From positions 2,496,001 through 2,560,000 of the forward strand of contig CAVYTA010000006.1 of assembly GCA_963771355.1 (NCBI GenBank): DNA of 64,000 bases, written 5' to 3'. Positions 1-6,614 of this stretch are shown here, one piece after another. Every line of letters starts with the position of its first letter. Position 1 is the stretch's first letter. The translations under genes and the position numbers were made by a program. The notes below the pieces were generated by a model. That model saw nothing but the letters and a program-made list of their open reading frames with translations, searched no databases and was not told the origin of the DNA. The DNA comes from an uncultured Candidatus Rokubacteria bacterium. GTDB lineage: Bacteria; Methylomirabilota; Methylomirabilia; Rokubacteriales; CSP1-6.

Positions 1-198
1 AGCGAGGCTGAATGGGACGATGATGTACCAGCCGATGAACTCCATCGAGAGGTAGGCGGCACGCACCATCTGAGCACTGTGGCTGGTCAGACCGACGATG
101 GATAGAGCGAGGTAGGCAACGACCGCGCCGAGCCAGCCGACCGACAAAATGATATGCGCGGTGAGCGCGAACTTGCGAAGACTTGGTGTCATGGTCAT
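1..198 (-). CDS. DUF2269-like membrane protein, 5' part (runs off window); third integron cassette
   Basis: Hand translation MTMTPSLRKFALTAHIILSVGWLGAVVAYLALSIVGLTS...; hydrophobic; ATG lies 10 nt after the attC R' site; absent from the ORF track. Confidence 0.7.
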   Translation of the reverse strand, partial: MTMTPSLRKFALTAHIILSVGWLGAVVAYLALSIVGLTSHSAQMVRAAYLSMEFIGWYIIVPFSLA

Positions 199-208
199 GC
201 CTTATGCG

Positions 209-295
209 GGCTAACGCTGCCAGTGAGCGGCGCGGTCTCCGGCCGCTACATCGCCCCTCACCGTTCCCCGCGGCCGCTCGATTGGCTGGTTAGAG
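209..295 (-). mobile_element. attC: integron attC site (87 bp)
   Basis: Minus strand: R'' CTCTAAC, 5 nt, L'' AATCGAGC ... L' GCTCACT, 6 nt, R' GTTAGCC; L'' has one extra base relative to L'; lies just downstream of a stop codon. Confidence 0.88.
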
Positions 296-313
296 GTTGC
301 GATGACGGAGGCG

Positions 314-1303
314 CTACTCAATGACATGGTCTGCTAGGGCCAGCAACGAGGGTGGGATCGCGAGGCCGAGCGTCTTTGCGGCCCGAAGGTTGATGACCAG
401 CTCAAAGTGGATCGGTTGCTCCACGGGGAGTTCAGCGGGCTTGGCGCCCTTCAGGATCCTGTCAACGTAGCTGGCGGCCTGCCGAAACTGTTCCGTCAGC
501 TTCGGCCCGTATGACAGGAGTCCCCCCGCCTCAACATTCTCACTGCGCTGGAATATGGTTGCGAGTCGGGCCTGCCGGGCCAACTCCGCAATTTGCCGGC
601 GCTCACTTATGAACAGTGGATCGGGGAGGATCACGACGCCTGCCACGCCAGCACGGGCTATTGCTGCAAAGGCCGATCCCAATTCCTTCGGCTCTCTGAC
701 CGCGACATGCTGGAGCTGTATCCGCAATGACTCGGCGGCGACCTGGGTATCTCGCCACATGAGCGCAGACCCAGGATTCGTTGTGTTTCGCAAGACGGCG
801 AGCCGTGTCGCAGCGGGGCGGACCTCCTTGATTAGCTGCAGTAACTTGCCGCTGACATCTCGGGAGACATTGCTGACGCCGGTGACGTTCCCGGCAGGTC
901 GCGAGAGGCTAGCCACCAGCCCACTCCCGACCGGATCGCCGACAGAGACCATAACGATCGGAATGGTGCGAGTCGCGCGCTTGGCGGCAAGCGTCGCCGG
1001 CGTGGTCCACGCGACGAGAACGTCCACTTTCGAGCGGACGAGATCGGTAGCCAGGCGGTCCAATTCGGGTTCAGCGCCCGCGCTCGATCTCAGCTCCAAG
1101 ACGAGATTCTGTCCCACGGAGTATCCGAGCTCCCGTAACCGCCCTCGCAATGGCTCGACGTGCTGCGCGGCCGCTGTCGCCGGGACCGGGAGGAGTACAC
1201 CGACCCGGTACTCCTGCGCGGCTCGCGGCGCATCGGCCAGGAGCGACGCGGCGAGAATCCCGGCAAGGGCGACGACGATCGTGACGATGGGTCTAACCGT
1301 CAT
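314..1303 (-). CDS. ABC transporter substrate-binding protein (ABC_sub_bind family); second cassette
   Basis: Signal peptide MTVRPIVTIVVALAG; family motifs DPVGSGLVASLSRPAGNVTG, GGLLSYG, ILKGAKPAELPVEQP; start moved to 1303 because the longer ORF crosses an attC. Confidence 0.9.
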   Translation of the reverse strand: MTVRPIVTIVVALAGILAASLLADAPRAAQEYRVGVLLPVPATAAAQHVEPLRGRLRELGYSVGQNLVLELRSSAGAEPELDRLATDLVRSKVDVLVAWTTPATLAAKRATRTIPIVMVSVGDPVGSGLVASLSRPAGNVTGVSNVSRDVSGKLLQLIKEVRPAATRLAVLRNTTNPGSALMWRDTQVAAESLRIQLQHVAVREPKELGSAFAAIARAGVAGVVILPDPLFISERRQIAELARQARLATIFQRSENVEAGGLLSYGPKLTEQFRQAASYVDRILKGAKPAELPVEQPIHFELVINLRAAKTLGLAIPPSLLALADHVIE

Positions 1304-1348
1304 GACTCGCTTTGGTAGCACTCCAACCGGATGAGGCAATCCATGAAC

Positions 1349-1403
1349 CTCTAACGCACCATTCAGCGGCGGCGGAGCCGTCCGCTGCAATAGGCAGTTG
1401 TCC
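1349..1403 (-). mobile_element. attC: integron attC site (55 bp)
   Basis: Minus strand: GGACAAC-TGCCT-ATT(G)CAGC-GG(A)CGG...CCGCC-GCTGAAT-GGTGC-GTTAGAG; canonical R''/L''/L'/R' layout with two extrahelical bases. Confidence 0.92.
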
Positions 1404-1437
1404 GACCGCAGGCAACTGTACGCCCCCTCGTCCGTGA

Positions 1438-2412
1438 TCACTCGATCAGCCGATCAGCGCGCAGGAGCACCGCCGGCGGGAACGTGACGCCTTGAGCTTT
1501 TGCCGTCTTGAGATGAAGGACCAACTCGAAGTGCGTCGGCTGCTCAACGGGGAGCTCGGCTGGGTTTGCGCCTCTCAGGATCTTGTCGATGAAGGTGGCG
1601 CCGGAGCGGTACTGCTCGATCGTGCTGAAGGAGTACGACATCAGGCCGCCTGCGTCCGCAAATTCATTCTGCCCGTACACGGCAACCTGACGCTGGGCGT
1701 TCACCAATTCCACAATACGTCCGCGTTGGGAGACGAAGAACGCGGCTGAGAGGACATAGAGCACGTCTGGCCGCTCGGACTTCAGCACCTTGAAAGCGGC
1801 GATCAGATCCTCCGGTGATCGCGCCTCGATCATCCTCAGGTTCAGTGCGAGTGTCGCCGCCGCCTGCTTCAGAGTGGGAAGCATTCGTACTAGGGGCAGG
1901 TTCGTCGGGTCGTGCAGCAGCGCCACACGCGAGGCCGAGGGGAACACTTCTTTGAGGAGCTGCAATATCTTGATCTGAAACTCCTCCGCCTGATTGCTGA
2001 GCCCGGTCGCATTGGTCCCCGGCCGTCGCAACGCCTTGATGATCCCAATCCCTACCGGATCTGAGACGGCGACGAACACGATCGGGATCGTCGTCGTCGC
2101 CTTGGATGCCGCGAGGGTCGCTTGAGAGCCGGCCGCGAACAAGACATCGGGCCTGAGCGCGACCAGTTCCGCGGCCAGCGCGGACAACCGGTCGAACCGC
2201 CCCTCCGCGAACCGCCGCTCGACCACAAGGTTGTGTCCCTCGCGGTAGCCGAGCTCGGCGAGCGCCCTGAACAGGGCTCGTTGATTCGGCGCATTGACCG
2301 CCGGTGAAGCCGGGACTAGGTAGGCCAGCCGGTGGGGGCGCTGCTCTGCACTCGCCCATGCGGTCATTGCGAACGAGGCTGCGCCCGTCAGAATCTCCCT
2401 GCGCGTGGTCAT
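1438..2412 (-). CDS. ABC transporter substrate-binding protein (ABC_sub_bind family); first cassette
   Basis: MTTRREILTG Tat-like leader; DPVGIG..LRRPGTNATG, GGLMSYS, ILRGANPAELPVEQP. Confidence 0.9.
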   Translation of the reverse strand: MTTRREILTGAASFAMTAWASAEQRPHRLAYLVPASPAVNAPNQRALFRALAELGYREGHNLVVERRFAEGRFDRLSALAAELVALRPDVLFAAGSQATLAASKATTTIPIVFVAVSDPVGIGIIKALRRPGTNATGLSNQAEEFQIKILQLLKEVFPSASRVALLHDPTNLPLVRMLPTLKQAAATLALNLRMIEARSPEDLIAAFKVLKSERPDVLYVLSAAFFVSQRGRIVELVNAQRQVAVYGQNEFADAGGLMSYSFSTIEQYRSGATFIDKILRGANPAELPVEQPTHFELVLHLKTAKAQGVTFPPAVLLRADRLIE

Positions 2413-2442
2413 ACGACGAGACAAATCTTCATCGGTCGTGGT

Positions 2443-2466
2443 TCGGACAACTAGAATTATCTAGTT
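2443..2466 (-). mobile_element. putative attI site at the head of the cassette array
   Basis: Minus strand AACTAGATAATTCTA-GTTGTCCGA; the core is the exact complement of R'' of the 1349-1403 attC; AT-rich; no attC arms upstream. Confidence 0.6.
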
Positions 2467-2669
2467 CTGTGTAGCGCTGGGGACGGTGCGGGCGGGGCCC
2501 AGATCGCATGGAGGGGTGAGTTCCCTGCCGGTCGAGGATGGCTGCTCGGGCGCGCAGTTGAGAAGGTGCGGGCGCCGCGGGGCGCCGGGATAGGCAGACC
2601 GGTGTAGCGCGGTGTACGCCGCGGGCTCGGCGGCGGGCGGGAGGGCGGCGCACCGCGGCCGCCACGGGC

Positions 2670-3539
2670 TTAGATCATCTCCGCCTGGGCGCTCATGGCG
2701 ACTGTGCCCGCGGGCGTGACGGCCCAGAGCTCGCAGCCGCGGCCGTCGGCGGTGGGGCGGCCGCGCAGCTCGAAGGGGGCGCCGAGGAAGAGCGGCGCGC
2801 GCGCCTGGGTGGTGTAGGAGCGGAAGGGGCGGCCGGGGTTCGCGTCGCGGGCGAAGTCGATGAGGAGCGTAGAGGTCAGGGGGCCGTGGACCACCAGCTC
2901 CGGGTAACCCTCCACGTCCATCGCCCAGGCGCGGTCGTAGTGGATGCGATGGCTGTTGAACGTCAGCGCAGAGAACCGGAACAGGAGCACGGGGTCGGGC
3001 TCCACGCGGCGACGCCAGGGGACGTCGGTCGGCGCCTCCTCGCGGCGCGGTGCCTGGTTCCGGTCGCCGGCCTTGACCTCCTCGCGGAACACCGTGCGGC
3101 GCTCTTCCTCGATGGCGAGGCCCTCGGGCCCGAAGATGCGGTTGACCACGGTGGCGAAGACGAGGGGGCCGGTGCCGCCCTCCTTCATCGAGATGTCGCG
3201 GAGCTCGGACTCGCGCCGGAGCTGATCGCCCACGCGAAGGGGCCGCTGGAAGAGGAAGCGCTCGCCGGCGAACATGCGGCGCGGGAGCGGCATGGGCGGC
3301 ACCACGCCGGCGTCGCGGGGGCTGCCGTCCGGATGTAGCGCGTCGGGCCCGAAGCGCGGCAGGAAGTACAGGATGTGCCAGCCTGGCGGCAGCGCGTCGC
3401 CCGACGCGAGCTCGGGCCCGGACCGCCCGAAGGTCAGGCGCAGAAGGTTCGCCGGCGCGGCGGTGACGACGTCGCTGGAGACGACGCGCCGTCCGATATG
3501 GGCCTTCAGGCTATCGAGGTCGAGAGCGATCTTGGCCAT
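2670..3539 (-). CDS. MaoC/HTD2-like double hot-dog acyl-CoA hydratase/dehydratase
   Basis: LPRRMFAG, LFRFSALTFNSHRIHYD, LVVHGPL motifs. Confidence 0.85.
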   Translation of the reverse strand: MAKIALDLDSLKAHIGRRVVSSDVVTAAPANLLRLTFGRSGPELASGDALPPGWHILYFLPRFGPDALHPDGSPRDAGVVPPMPLPRRMFAGERFLFQRPLRVGDQLRRESELRDISMKEGGTGPLVFATVVNRIFGPEGLAIEEERRTVFREEVKAGDRNQAPRREEAPTDVPWRRRVEPDPVLLFRFSALTFNSHRIHYDRAWAMDVEGYPELVVHGPLTSTLLIDFARDANPGRPFRSYTTQARAPLFLGAPFELRGRPTADGRGCELWAVTPAGTVAMSAQAEMI

Positions 3540-3832
3540 GGGGCGACAGTAGCACGCCGCTCAGGAAAGGCAGGATTCGCGCCAAGCGGGGCCGGGGGCG
3601 CGCTCCGGCCAAGTGTGCGAGAAAGCATGAACTGTCTCAGCACATCTCCGAAGGTCAGGTGGCGTCCACTGCCCCGTCGGCGGGGCAGCAGCCCCCGCGA
3701 GGATGGGGCCGGCGGGGTGAACGTCCGGCGTGACGGGCATTTAGAGCCGATGCCCAGTGGGGGGTGCACAGCGGGGGGCAAAGTGCAGCCTTCGTCCGCT
3801 CCCCGGCCATCGCGATGTCGTATGCTCCCGCC

Positions 3833-4581
3833 ATGGCGCGACGGCCCCGGTTACGGTCCTGCTTGCTGCTGGGACTTGCCGTGACCTTCGCCGTTCCTGC
3901 CTGCGCCACGCTCGAGCGGGCCGGCGCGAATTACTGGGAGCTGTCGAGCGAAGCCTCGGGGCAGGCGCCAGATCCCGCCGCGACGCCGGAGCCGGTGATC
4001 CAGGTCTACGCGGCGCGCACCGTGGGCTGGCGCGGGCTGGTGGGCGTGCACACGTGGATCGTGCTCAAGCCGGCGGAGGCGCCCACCTATACGCGCTACG
4101 AGGTGATGGGCTGGGGCGTCGGATCGGGGCGGCCGGCGATCCGTGTGAACCGCATGGGGCCGGACAACCACTGGTTCGGGAGCCGTCCCGACCGCCTGGT
4201 AGACCGGCGCGGTCCCGAGGTCGGGGCGCTTTGATCGAGAAAGTCGACGCGGCCATCAAGGACTATCCGTATCCTGATCGCTATCGCTCCTGGCCCGGGC
4301 CCAACAGCAATACCTTCCTCGCGCACATCGGCCGCGCGGTGCCGGAGCTGCGGCTGGATCTGCCGTCCACCGCCATCGGCAAGGACTTCTTGCCCAATGG
4401 CGACCTCACCGCGCTGGCGCCGAGCGGTACCGGCGTGCAGGTCTCGCTGTTCGGGCTCGCGGGTCTCCTGGTGGGGGTGGAGGAGGGGCTCGAGGTGAAT
4501 CTCCTCGGGCTCTCCTTCGGCCTCGATCTGAACCGGCCCGCGCTGCGGCTTCCCGTCGCGGGGCGGCTCGGCTTCCCGTGA
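3833..4581 (+). pseudogene. DUF3750-like protein with frameshift near 4225-4234
   Basis: N-half (VIQVYAAR..VHTWIV..RYEVMGW) stops at 4234; C-half (YRSWPGPNSNTF, LPSTAIGKD) continues in another frame; may be an assembly error. Confidence 0.75.
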
Positions 4582-5028: not shown

Positions 5029-5516
5029 GGCTCTCTCCCTAGCAGGCGGGGCACCGCCTTCTCGAGGCAGCGGAGGATCTCGTCGCGGCAGAGGCGAAAG
5101 GCGGTCTCACCCTCGCCGGCGGGATCGGCGATGTCGCCCTCCTCGTCCACGAACTCGCGCAGGGTGACGATGCGCCGGCCCGCCGCCTCCGCGAAGGCGT
5201 CGAGCATGAACTTCTGCTGGACGGTCATGGTGAGGATGAGATCCGCCTCCGCGATGAGGTGCCGGTGGCGCTTGAGGTCGGTGGAGGTCATGTCGTCCTC
5301 CCCCAGGTACACGCCGATCTCCTTCAGCGCCAGCCGCGCGTCCAGGGACGGCAGCATGCCGTCGCGGCAGTAGGTGGCGATGCCGCCCGAGCGGATGCGG
5401 TACGGGTGGCGCGCGTCGCGCTCGGTCAGCATCTTCTCGAGGAGGACCTGGGCCATCACGCTGCGCGCGGTATTGGCGTGGCAGACGACCAGCAGCTTCT
5501 GCTCCCCGTCGATCAT
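5025..5516 (-). CDS. low-molecular-weight phosphatase / ArsC-like protein
   Basis: P-loop CHANTARS (CX5R), DLILTMT, DIADP; ATGA overlaps with both neighbours. Confidence 0.85.
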   Translation of the reverse strand: MIDGEQKLLVVCHANTARSVMAQVLLEKMLTERDARHPYRIRSGGIATYCRDGMLPSLDARLALKEIGVYLGEDDMTSTDLKRHRHLIAEADLILTMTVQQKFMLDAFAEAAGRRIVTLREFVDEEGDIADPAGEGETAFRLCRDEILRCLEKAVPRLLGREP

Positions 5517-6568
5517 CCCTTGGTGTCGGGCAGCGGCCGGTAGTACGGGTTCCCCTGCCCCACCCACTCGCCCAGCATGGCGCGGAACTGGGGGCCCATG
5601 GGGTCGATGCCGCGCATGGGCATGGTGCCGCGGCGGATGGTGAAGTCATGCGGGGCCAGCTCGCCGCCGCGGACGAAGTGGCGCTCGGCGGCATCTGCCC
5701 GGCCCTGGCGGTAGAGCCACTCACCCAGCCCGAACTCGGCGCGCGCCTGCTGGTCGGCCTCGCCGGGGAGGGGCTGGAGCTCCCGGGCGGAGGCGCCCGC
5801 GGGCAGAGCCGGCGCCTCGCCCCGCACCCAGGCCCGCAGCGCGCCCAGATGCCGGGCCGACTCGAGCCCGGTGATGTGCTTGAAGGTGTCGGTGCCGAAG
5901 GCCACGTCGTTCGGCCGCACGATGCGGCCGGCCTCGTCGATCCAGAACACGGTCGGCACGTTGACGATGTTGTAGAGATCGGCCAGCACGTGGCCCGTGT
6001 CCACCAGCGAGGGATGGCGCGGGCGCGCCGCCTCGATCCAGGGCCGCGCATCCTCCGGGCTCTTGTCCAGCGCCACCGTGATCACCGTGAAGCCCGCGCC
6101 GCCCAGCTCCTCGAAAAGCGCCTGCCAGACCGGCAGGTCGAGGCGGCACCCTCACCAGGACGCATAGGCGACGAGGAGAACCTTCTTGCCGCGGTGCTCG
6201 CGCAGCGAGTGGAGCCGCCCGTCCAGATCGGGCAGCGTGAAGTCGGGCGCCTCGAGCGCGGCCAGGGCGCGCGCGCGGTCGCTCGCGCCCACGCCGAGAT
6301 AGGCCGCCCGCTCCGCGGGGTCGAGCGCGAGGGGCCGGCCCAGCGCCGCCGCCACGGCGGCCAGGTCCACGCCGTCCGCGCTCTCGAGCGCGGCGCCCGG
6401 CCGTACCGGCACGCAGAGCGCGCCGCGGCAGAGGCCCTCGGGCTTGAGCGTCCAGCCGGTGGCCCGCTCGAGCGCCTCGCGCGTGAGGCGGATGGTGTCG
6501 CCGCTCACGCGCGCGGGCACCGTCGCGGGCTTCCCCTCATCGAGGATGGTGAATGTCGAGTCGGTCAT
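5513..6568 (-). CDS. selenoprotein, ResA/TlpA-like thioredoxin fold, YASW-U-GC motif (Sec at 6152-6154)
   Basis: ORFs 6152.. and 5513..6085 are in the same frame: APDFTLPDLDG...AYASW[TGA]GCRLDLPVWQ; AGGAG before ATG 6568; hairpin after the UGA. Confidence 0.88.
6109..6143 (-). promoter_or_regulatory. bacterial SECIS-like hairpin
   Basis: CCUCGA-CCUGCC-GGUCU-GGCAGG-..-UCGAGG just downstream of the UGA; GGUCU loop as in the E. coli fdhF SECIS. Confidence 0.75.
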
Positions 6569-6614
6569 GGCGTGGCTCCTGGGCGCCGCGGCTTGGGGCG
6601 CGTCCGGATCGTGG

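Follow-up and report, generated by a model that had tools for sequence, protein, structure and literature searches.

By established integron chemistry, the integrase IntI joins attI, as double-stranded DNA, to the folded bottom strand of an attC site, the exchange falling at G|TT; attI1 carries accessory IntI sites, and class 2 integrons are rescued in trans by other integrases. Arrays without such a gene are termed CALINs (attC site clusters that lack an integron-integrase), with intI loss among four listed origins (Cury et al. 2016, PMC4889954; this and all further sources are described from their accessible text). In the inverted-integrase integrons of Treponema, intI is transcribed toward attI, sharing its direction with the cassettes, and at the syntenic place in T. 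phagedenis an array has remained after loss of intI (Wu et al. 2013, PMC3607928). In Xanthomonas, whose ilvD integrons form a platform behind a dehydratase gene, intI is often truncated or deleted, CALINs lie at several conserved loci, and species with no functional intI have singleton cassettes (bioRxiv 10.1101/2025.06.18.660453). Archaeal integrons have a putative attI immediately downstream of intI, and the cassettes of archaeal CALINs can, according to that study, be excised or captured in trans (Ghaly et al. 2022, PMC9668308). In class 2 integrons with a truncated IntI2, attI and the array outlive the functional integrase (PMC8876359). The locus described here resembles these systems in the features named, and it is like CALINs in having several attC sites with no intI nearby in a genome without intI. 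In the accessible text of these sources, intI loss, several CALIN loci and in-trans mobilization are already in print (PMC4889954, bioRxiv 10.1101/2025.06.18.660453, PMC9668308). A literature search made largely without subscription papers and supplements found nothing on Rokubacteria integrons or on intI-less attI sites as cassette recipients.

The locus opens a window of 64,000 nucleotides (G000:C6:2496001-2560000) from the genome G000 (5.5 Mb, 8 contigs, 99.77% complete), and near-identical DNA is present in soil and rhizosphere metagenomes from several studies. For comparison we used same-genus genomes, including G002 and G003, metagenome contigs, including L112 and L114, and the soil runs X1, X3, X7, X9 and X12. 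We conclude that the window holds an integron array behind an intact-looking attI and leader, in an integrase-free assembly, that was probably loaded and reshuffled in trans by an IntI from another locus. The array is a CALIN that kept its attI; its loading in trans is likely, with activity deduced from sequence comparison. The features are listed along the minus strand, scored where applicable with the covariance model R1 described below.

2670-3539, minus strand: host gene for a MaoC/FAS1-type dehydratase ("hydratase"), 289 aa (PF13452, E 7e-10), its stop abutting the platform
2635-2669, minus strand: spacer from the hydratase stop to the leader, common to G003, L112 and L114 and shortened in G002
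2476-2634, minus strand: conserved leader, homologous to the spacer between intI stop and attI of the intI-linked platform
2449-2475, minus strand: conserved span of the attI core, with the crossover G|TT at 2451|2450
1356-2451, minus strand: cassette 1, 1096 bp, with a 9-base run between core and R''
1438-2412, minus strand: ABC-type substrate-binding protein gene of cassette 1, 324 aa (PF04392, E 1e-42)
1349-1403, minus strand: attC1, 55 bp, with R'' at 1403-1397 and R' at 1355-1349 (30.9 bits with R1)
216-1355, minus strand: cassette 2, 1140 bp, with a 10-base run between core and R''
314-1303, minus strand: ABC-type substrate-binding protein gene of cassette 2, 329 aa (PF04392, E 5e-47)
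209-295, minus strand: attC2, 87 bp (42.1 bits with R1)
1-215, minus strand: start of cassette 3, 871 bp in all, crossing the window edge
starting at 198, minus strand: membrane protein gene of cassette 3, 197 aa

The order, strands and coordinates that the initial annotation had given for the attI-like site, the two cassettes with substrate-binding protein genes, the two attC sites and the third gene were re-derived unchanged, and the array region is less GC-rich than the rest of the window, as had been noted (63.1% versus 71.2%). Two extents changed: the array, placed at 1-2466, is correct within the window but continues past its start to about C6:2487000, with six more attC matches to R1, up to C6:2489927; and the attI-like site, placed at 2443-2466, is real by homology but has a conserved span of 2449-2475 and a leader reaching about 2634. 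The DUF2269-like label of the 197-aa membrane protein is a lead only, with no Pfam match; the protein falls in one Atlas cluster, in which 16% of members carry PF10027. The two substrate-binding proteins share 41% identity, and no cognate permease gene lies beside that of cassette 1. Distal gene content comprises GNAT, AHSA1, SMI1/KNR4, DUF1801, DUF2071, LysE, DUF2314 and a third PF04392 gene. G000 has 49 PF04392 matches in all; the idea that most are old cassettes was rejected, attC following only 5 of the 35 long copies. In 6 of 11 genome arrays, scored partly by eye, a PF04392-type gene comes first, with no permease genes alongside (G000 C6a, G000 C4, G002 C20, G002 C3, G003 C51 and G006 C13). 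A lone attC match of 35.6 bits (L074, G000:C5:1000227-1000280) lies amid fragmented PF04392 genes, with no leader or attI nearby. Elsewhere in the window, a thioredoxin-fold gene at 5513-6571 (minus strand), presumably AhpC/TlpA-like, forms one 352-aa frame if its in-frame TGA encodes selenocysteine (motif W-U-G-C), and a DUF3750 gene at 3757-4581 (plus strand) is split into two frames overlapping near 4234 by a frameshift or an assembly error.

To score attC sites, we built R1 from 23 sites at relatives' intI-linked loci, with no G000 site included. Both sites proposed in the window scored, at 42.1 bits for 209-295 (E 7e-7) and 30.9 bits for 1352-1400 (E 2e-4), with 16.6 bits for the best other match in the window; the whole array gave eight matches at 23.9-50.1 bits, clustered on one strand. 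Genome-wide R1 searches, scoring 150 candidates, missed both window sites, and an unfiltered local search recovered both. The covariance model was used because a looser attC script returned 149 genome-wide candidates, mostly noise; a strict script found only one site, since the cores here are off-consensus. The sites have R''/R' cores, complementary L boxes with an extra base and a bottom-strand hairpin, in attC1 with unpaired bases. With folding z values of -2.1 for attC1 and -0.6 for attC2, folding by itself is weak support. Each cassette core is complementary to its own R'' in the circular form: the runs of 9 and 10 bases annotated for cassettes 1 and 2 are there, and cassettes 1-6 match at 9, 10, 9, 10, 8 and 10 of 10 bases, against a background of 18,755 arbitrary GTT/AAC pairs from this 12-kb stretch, of which 49 attain at least 9, true pairs included. 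Neither the attC1 R'' (GGACAAC) nor the core of cassette 1 follows the usual consensus, which we take to be RYYYAAC for R'', yet the two are complementary to each other. The distal array has decayed, as its last two intervals match at only 6 and 5 of 10 bases and hold several genes; attC4 reads GCT in place of GTT, and some distal genes lack an attC.

No IntI in G000 passes the TIGR02249 cut-off (82 of 265 bits at best), and positions 182-236 of this profile are skipped by the matches. None of the 11 PF00589 (tyrosine-recombinase) matches is an IntI, and tblastn, blastn and nhmmer searches with relatives' IntI returned only scraps of 70 nt (C4:240569) and 55 nt (C6:1214066). IntI over the cut-off occurs in 15 of 61 genomes (60 relatives and G000), but only one of the seven other genus genomes has a match. 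With no intI adjoining attI, at least two attC clustered on one strand and no intI in the assembly, the locus has the composition of a CALIN and not of a complete integron, which bears out the initial annotation of an array with attI and without adjoining integrase. That annotation had offered three accounts: service in trans, loss of intI, or an intI at the far array end. The last is rejected, there being no IntI anywhere in the G000 assembly. Loss is shown for two other G000 platforms by the scraps there; between hydratase and leader, alignment and blastn detected no remnant (best E 0.08), and local loss at the hydratase locus is for this reason something that we only infer.

The leader connects the locus to integrase-bearing relatives. 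In G002, intI is co-oriented with its array of at least 20 attC sites, and the same attI lies 190 bp past the intI stop. Because of this match, the stretch described at first as only about 200 bp of non-coding DNA beside the hydratase 3' end, correctly as regards the missing intI, can be recognized as the conserved intI-attI leader; the hydratase gene ends at the point where intI ends in the intI-linked form. Among 17 intI loci scanned in relatives, eight had attC calls outside the ORF, all downstream on the intI strand. In this lineage intI is co-oriented with the cassettes and ends about 190 bp before attI, an inverted-integrase layout found in relatives and, by remnants, at G000 C4; the window locus has the leader only. 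Identity of the window leader is 86% with the leader behind the G003 hydratase, 65-68% with the other three copies in G000 and 57% with the G002 intI-linked leader. Across 19 aligned leaders, short GCTACAC-type blocks and the core are conserved and the spacers drift; in the window, the motif block at 2589-2608 is well kept and the middle block decayed. The blocks may be accessory IntI sites, a cassette promoter or both; no sigma-70 consensus promoter was found in 2380-2800. Conservation ends exactly at GTT in all platform copies compared, and together with homology to the G002 intI-linked site this identifies the predicted attI-like site at the array head as an attI with a G|TT crossover.

G000 has four copies of the 13-nt attI core, all of them at array heads, and the core was found in 4 of 8 genus genomes and 12 metagenome contigs, with 0 occurrences in the 60 family genomes drawn. 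Six genome-collection matches to the attI pattern include three labelled Rokubacteria and one labelled Methylomirabilota, and four of the six repeat platforms already counted. One record labelled Gemmatimonadota (L079) has a similar attI core and a 111-nt intI remnant, which extends the site type beyond a single phylum. Viral contigs gave 0 matches, and carriage of the platform on phages was rejected. A palindrome, GT(A/C)TC-N6-GA(T/G)AC, was seen by eye at the predicted intI promoter in L020, L025, L026 and L036 and at the L071 array head, and has 19 matches in G000; an SOS box was rejected, no match being seen in the lexA and recA upstream regions inspected, and it is possibly an operator of IntI or of another repressor. 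At L071 (G006:C13:234900-241300), the array follows this intI-upstream palindrome with no intI, leader or attI detected, and the whole platform seems to have been deleted.

G000 has four leader-attI platforms, each heading an array; two keep intI scraps and the window platform none. The C4 platform is the orthologue of the G002 intI locus (flank 92%, panE and DUF2277), and intI at this locus is found in five different states: full-length with three frameshifts in G002, 723 nt in L107, a four-piece mosaic in G003, 163 nt in L113 and 70 nt in G000. The G002 frameshifts cannot be told apart from assembly errors, the background being 0.9-2.3 short gaps per kb. Intact intI genes tied to this attI type did not turn up: that of G002 is frameshifted, and none of the 12 metagenome loci, three of which have too little flank, shows one. 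In a tree of a short alignment, the G002 intI-linked leader groups apart from other panE-locus leaders, which hints at re-import of intI.

All seven other genus genomes have the hydratase gene, and two have the platform behind it; in four of the remaining five, an ORF that we read as synthetase-like from its sequence overlaps the hydratase stop. An intI-free hydratase-leader junction is common to G000, G002, G003, L112 and L114, and behind it stand four different first cassettes. The first cassette of the G002 hydratase array encodes a PF04392-like protein only 44-47% identical to the two in the window. L112 and G003/L114 have hydratase genes 98.6-98.7% identical and the same array from cassette 2 on (95.6% over 1457 bp), and cassette 1 differs exactly from G|TT; in both L112 and L114, the alternative first cassette fits its own R''. 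Cassette 1 likewise differs between L105 and L110, 96% identical at another intI-free locus. Since first cassettes vary among close relatives that have this integrase-free site in common, it was likely loaded repeatedly by an integrase encoded at another place, and service in trans, the remaining account of the three, is supported by this turnover. Cassettes are also shared among arrays: a 933-bp cassette is 96.7% identical between the G002 intI-linked and orphan arrays, three are common to the G003 hydratase array and the G000 C4 array (79-94%), and one is common to G000 C6b, G002 C14 and G004. In runs X3 and X9, soil contigs stop or branch off exactly at 2449, and one of them runs on into a G002 cassette from the intI-linked array (24/25 bases); this is weak evidence because their overlaps with the window span only 30-42 bases. 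Missing coverage of cassette 1 in part of run X3 was left out of account, since such a gap proves nothing, as were contig joints that connect paralogous substrate-binding protein genes. In soil runs of other studies (X12, 2396-2571, 0 differences; X1), the junction of attI and cassette 1 is unchanged, so turnover is slow or has stopped.

In the mechanism that we propose, the platform would at first have been a complete co-oriented integron, or a copy of such an integron, and would later have lost intI by deletion; the leader would mark the limit of such deletions because recombination or cassette expression depends on it. The IntI that served the hydratase-locus attI in trans would have come from the panE-DUF2277 locus or been imported, and would have bound this attI as double-stranded DNA, inserting or excising cassettes at G|TT via folded attC bottom strands. 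As no intI is left in the genome, the four arrays of G000 are probably frozen now and decaying, unless an integrase is re-imported.

Several alternatives bear on this account. If the hydratase locus had possessed its own intI, which loaded each lineage's cassettes and was then deleted independently in each, no service in trans would be required; independent deletions did occur at the panE-DUF2277 locus, with its five intI states. Those deletions gave different junctions each time, though, whereas here G000, G003, L112 and L114 have the same spacer (86-100% identical) and G002 is one deletion away, which makes loading purely in cis highly improbable. We consider it very unlikely, too, that the platform is dead and that first cassettes differ through ordinary deletion or homologous block exchange and not through IntI at this attI. 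In its favour, a soil contig of run X7 joins half an attI to the attC4 end by a non-canonical deletion that removed cassettes 1-4, attC sites of G003, the first one included, have collapsed, and GCT at attC4 and attC-less distal genes occur in this array itself. Against a dead platform stand the sharp limit of conservation at GTT in every copy and the fit of the L112 and L114 first cassettes to their own R''; block exchange, moreover, only moves variants that some recombinase made first.

It is somewhat more conceivable, and still quite unlikely, that the leader-attI unit itself moved to new loci by site-specific recombination and never had intI there. Counting flanks mapped on G000, platforms occupy 10 different chromosomal loci; that on C6b is an insert of 6.7 kb whose site is empty in four of six relatives, and that on C8, with a leader 86% like the C4 leader and sister to it in the leader tree, is absent at the orthologous site in the six relatives having the flank. 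The upstream boundary is ragged: in some copies it lies about 0-35 nt ahead of the first motif, in others 50-723 nt inside intI. Deletion explains this better than a fixed crossover would, and intI scraps persist at C6b and L106. A further alternative, unlikely but deserving some weight, alters only the view that the G000 arrays are now frozen: an intact intI may fall within a gap of the assembly, or be carried by a plasmid or phage of the organism that was not binned. The eight contigs leave gaps, soil contigs branch at the crossover, and a quarter or so of the related genomes encode an IntI over the cut-off; yet the genome is 99.77% complete, the orthologue of the intI locus was assembled with only 70 nt of intI, and viral contigs lack the attI. 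Loading in trans from another locus remains our preferred reading. An extension of it, which we regard as possible though doubtful, is a distributed integron: the genus would seed its chromosome with attI docking platforms kept under selection, and the integrase would be a visitor, repeatedly deleted and re-imported, that loads all platforms from one shared cassette pool while present.

Set against the accessible descriptions, the locus departs from each known system. It keeps attI and leader, in four copies per genome, unlike CALINs (PMC4889954), and no attI is described for the distant CALINs of Xanthomonas, where strains with the same intI lesion usually have identical arrays (bioRxiv 10.1101/2025.06.18.660453, citing Gillings 2005). 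The T. phagedenis remnant, one locus with one gain and one loss, is called static (PMC3607928); here, across 10 loci in close relatives, intI was lost repeatedly and cassettes went on changing. For archaeal integrons, the accessible text describes no intI-less attI platforms in multiple copies (PMC9668308). Class 2 integrons still have the integrase gene, interrupted by a stop codon, and it travels on a transposon (PMC8876359), whereas here intI is physically absent and the sites are chromosomal and multiple. CALINs were speculated to be cassette donors (Cury et al. 2016, PMC4889954), while the intI-less site here seems to act as a recipient whose position 1 turns over.

The case addresses whether integrase-less arrays are fossils or in use, a question on which the accessible text of Cury et al. 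2016 only speculates. For an uncultured soil lineage it supplies a defined attI, together with natural pairs of strains differing at position 1 of a site without intI and an intI deletion series, and loading in trans is directly testable with a 190-bp fragment. It also carries a warning that CALIN counts hide retained attI sites; to our knowledge, current tools detect attI only for classes 1-3. For these bacteria, it shows one route for the spread of PF04392 binding-protein genes, and if the distributed integron proves true, CALINs would be active recipients and not only decaying donors.
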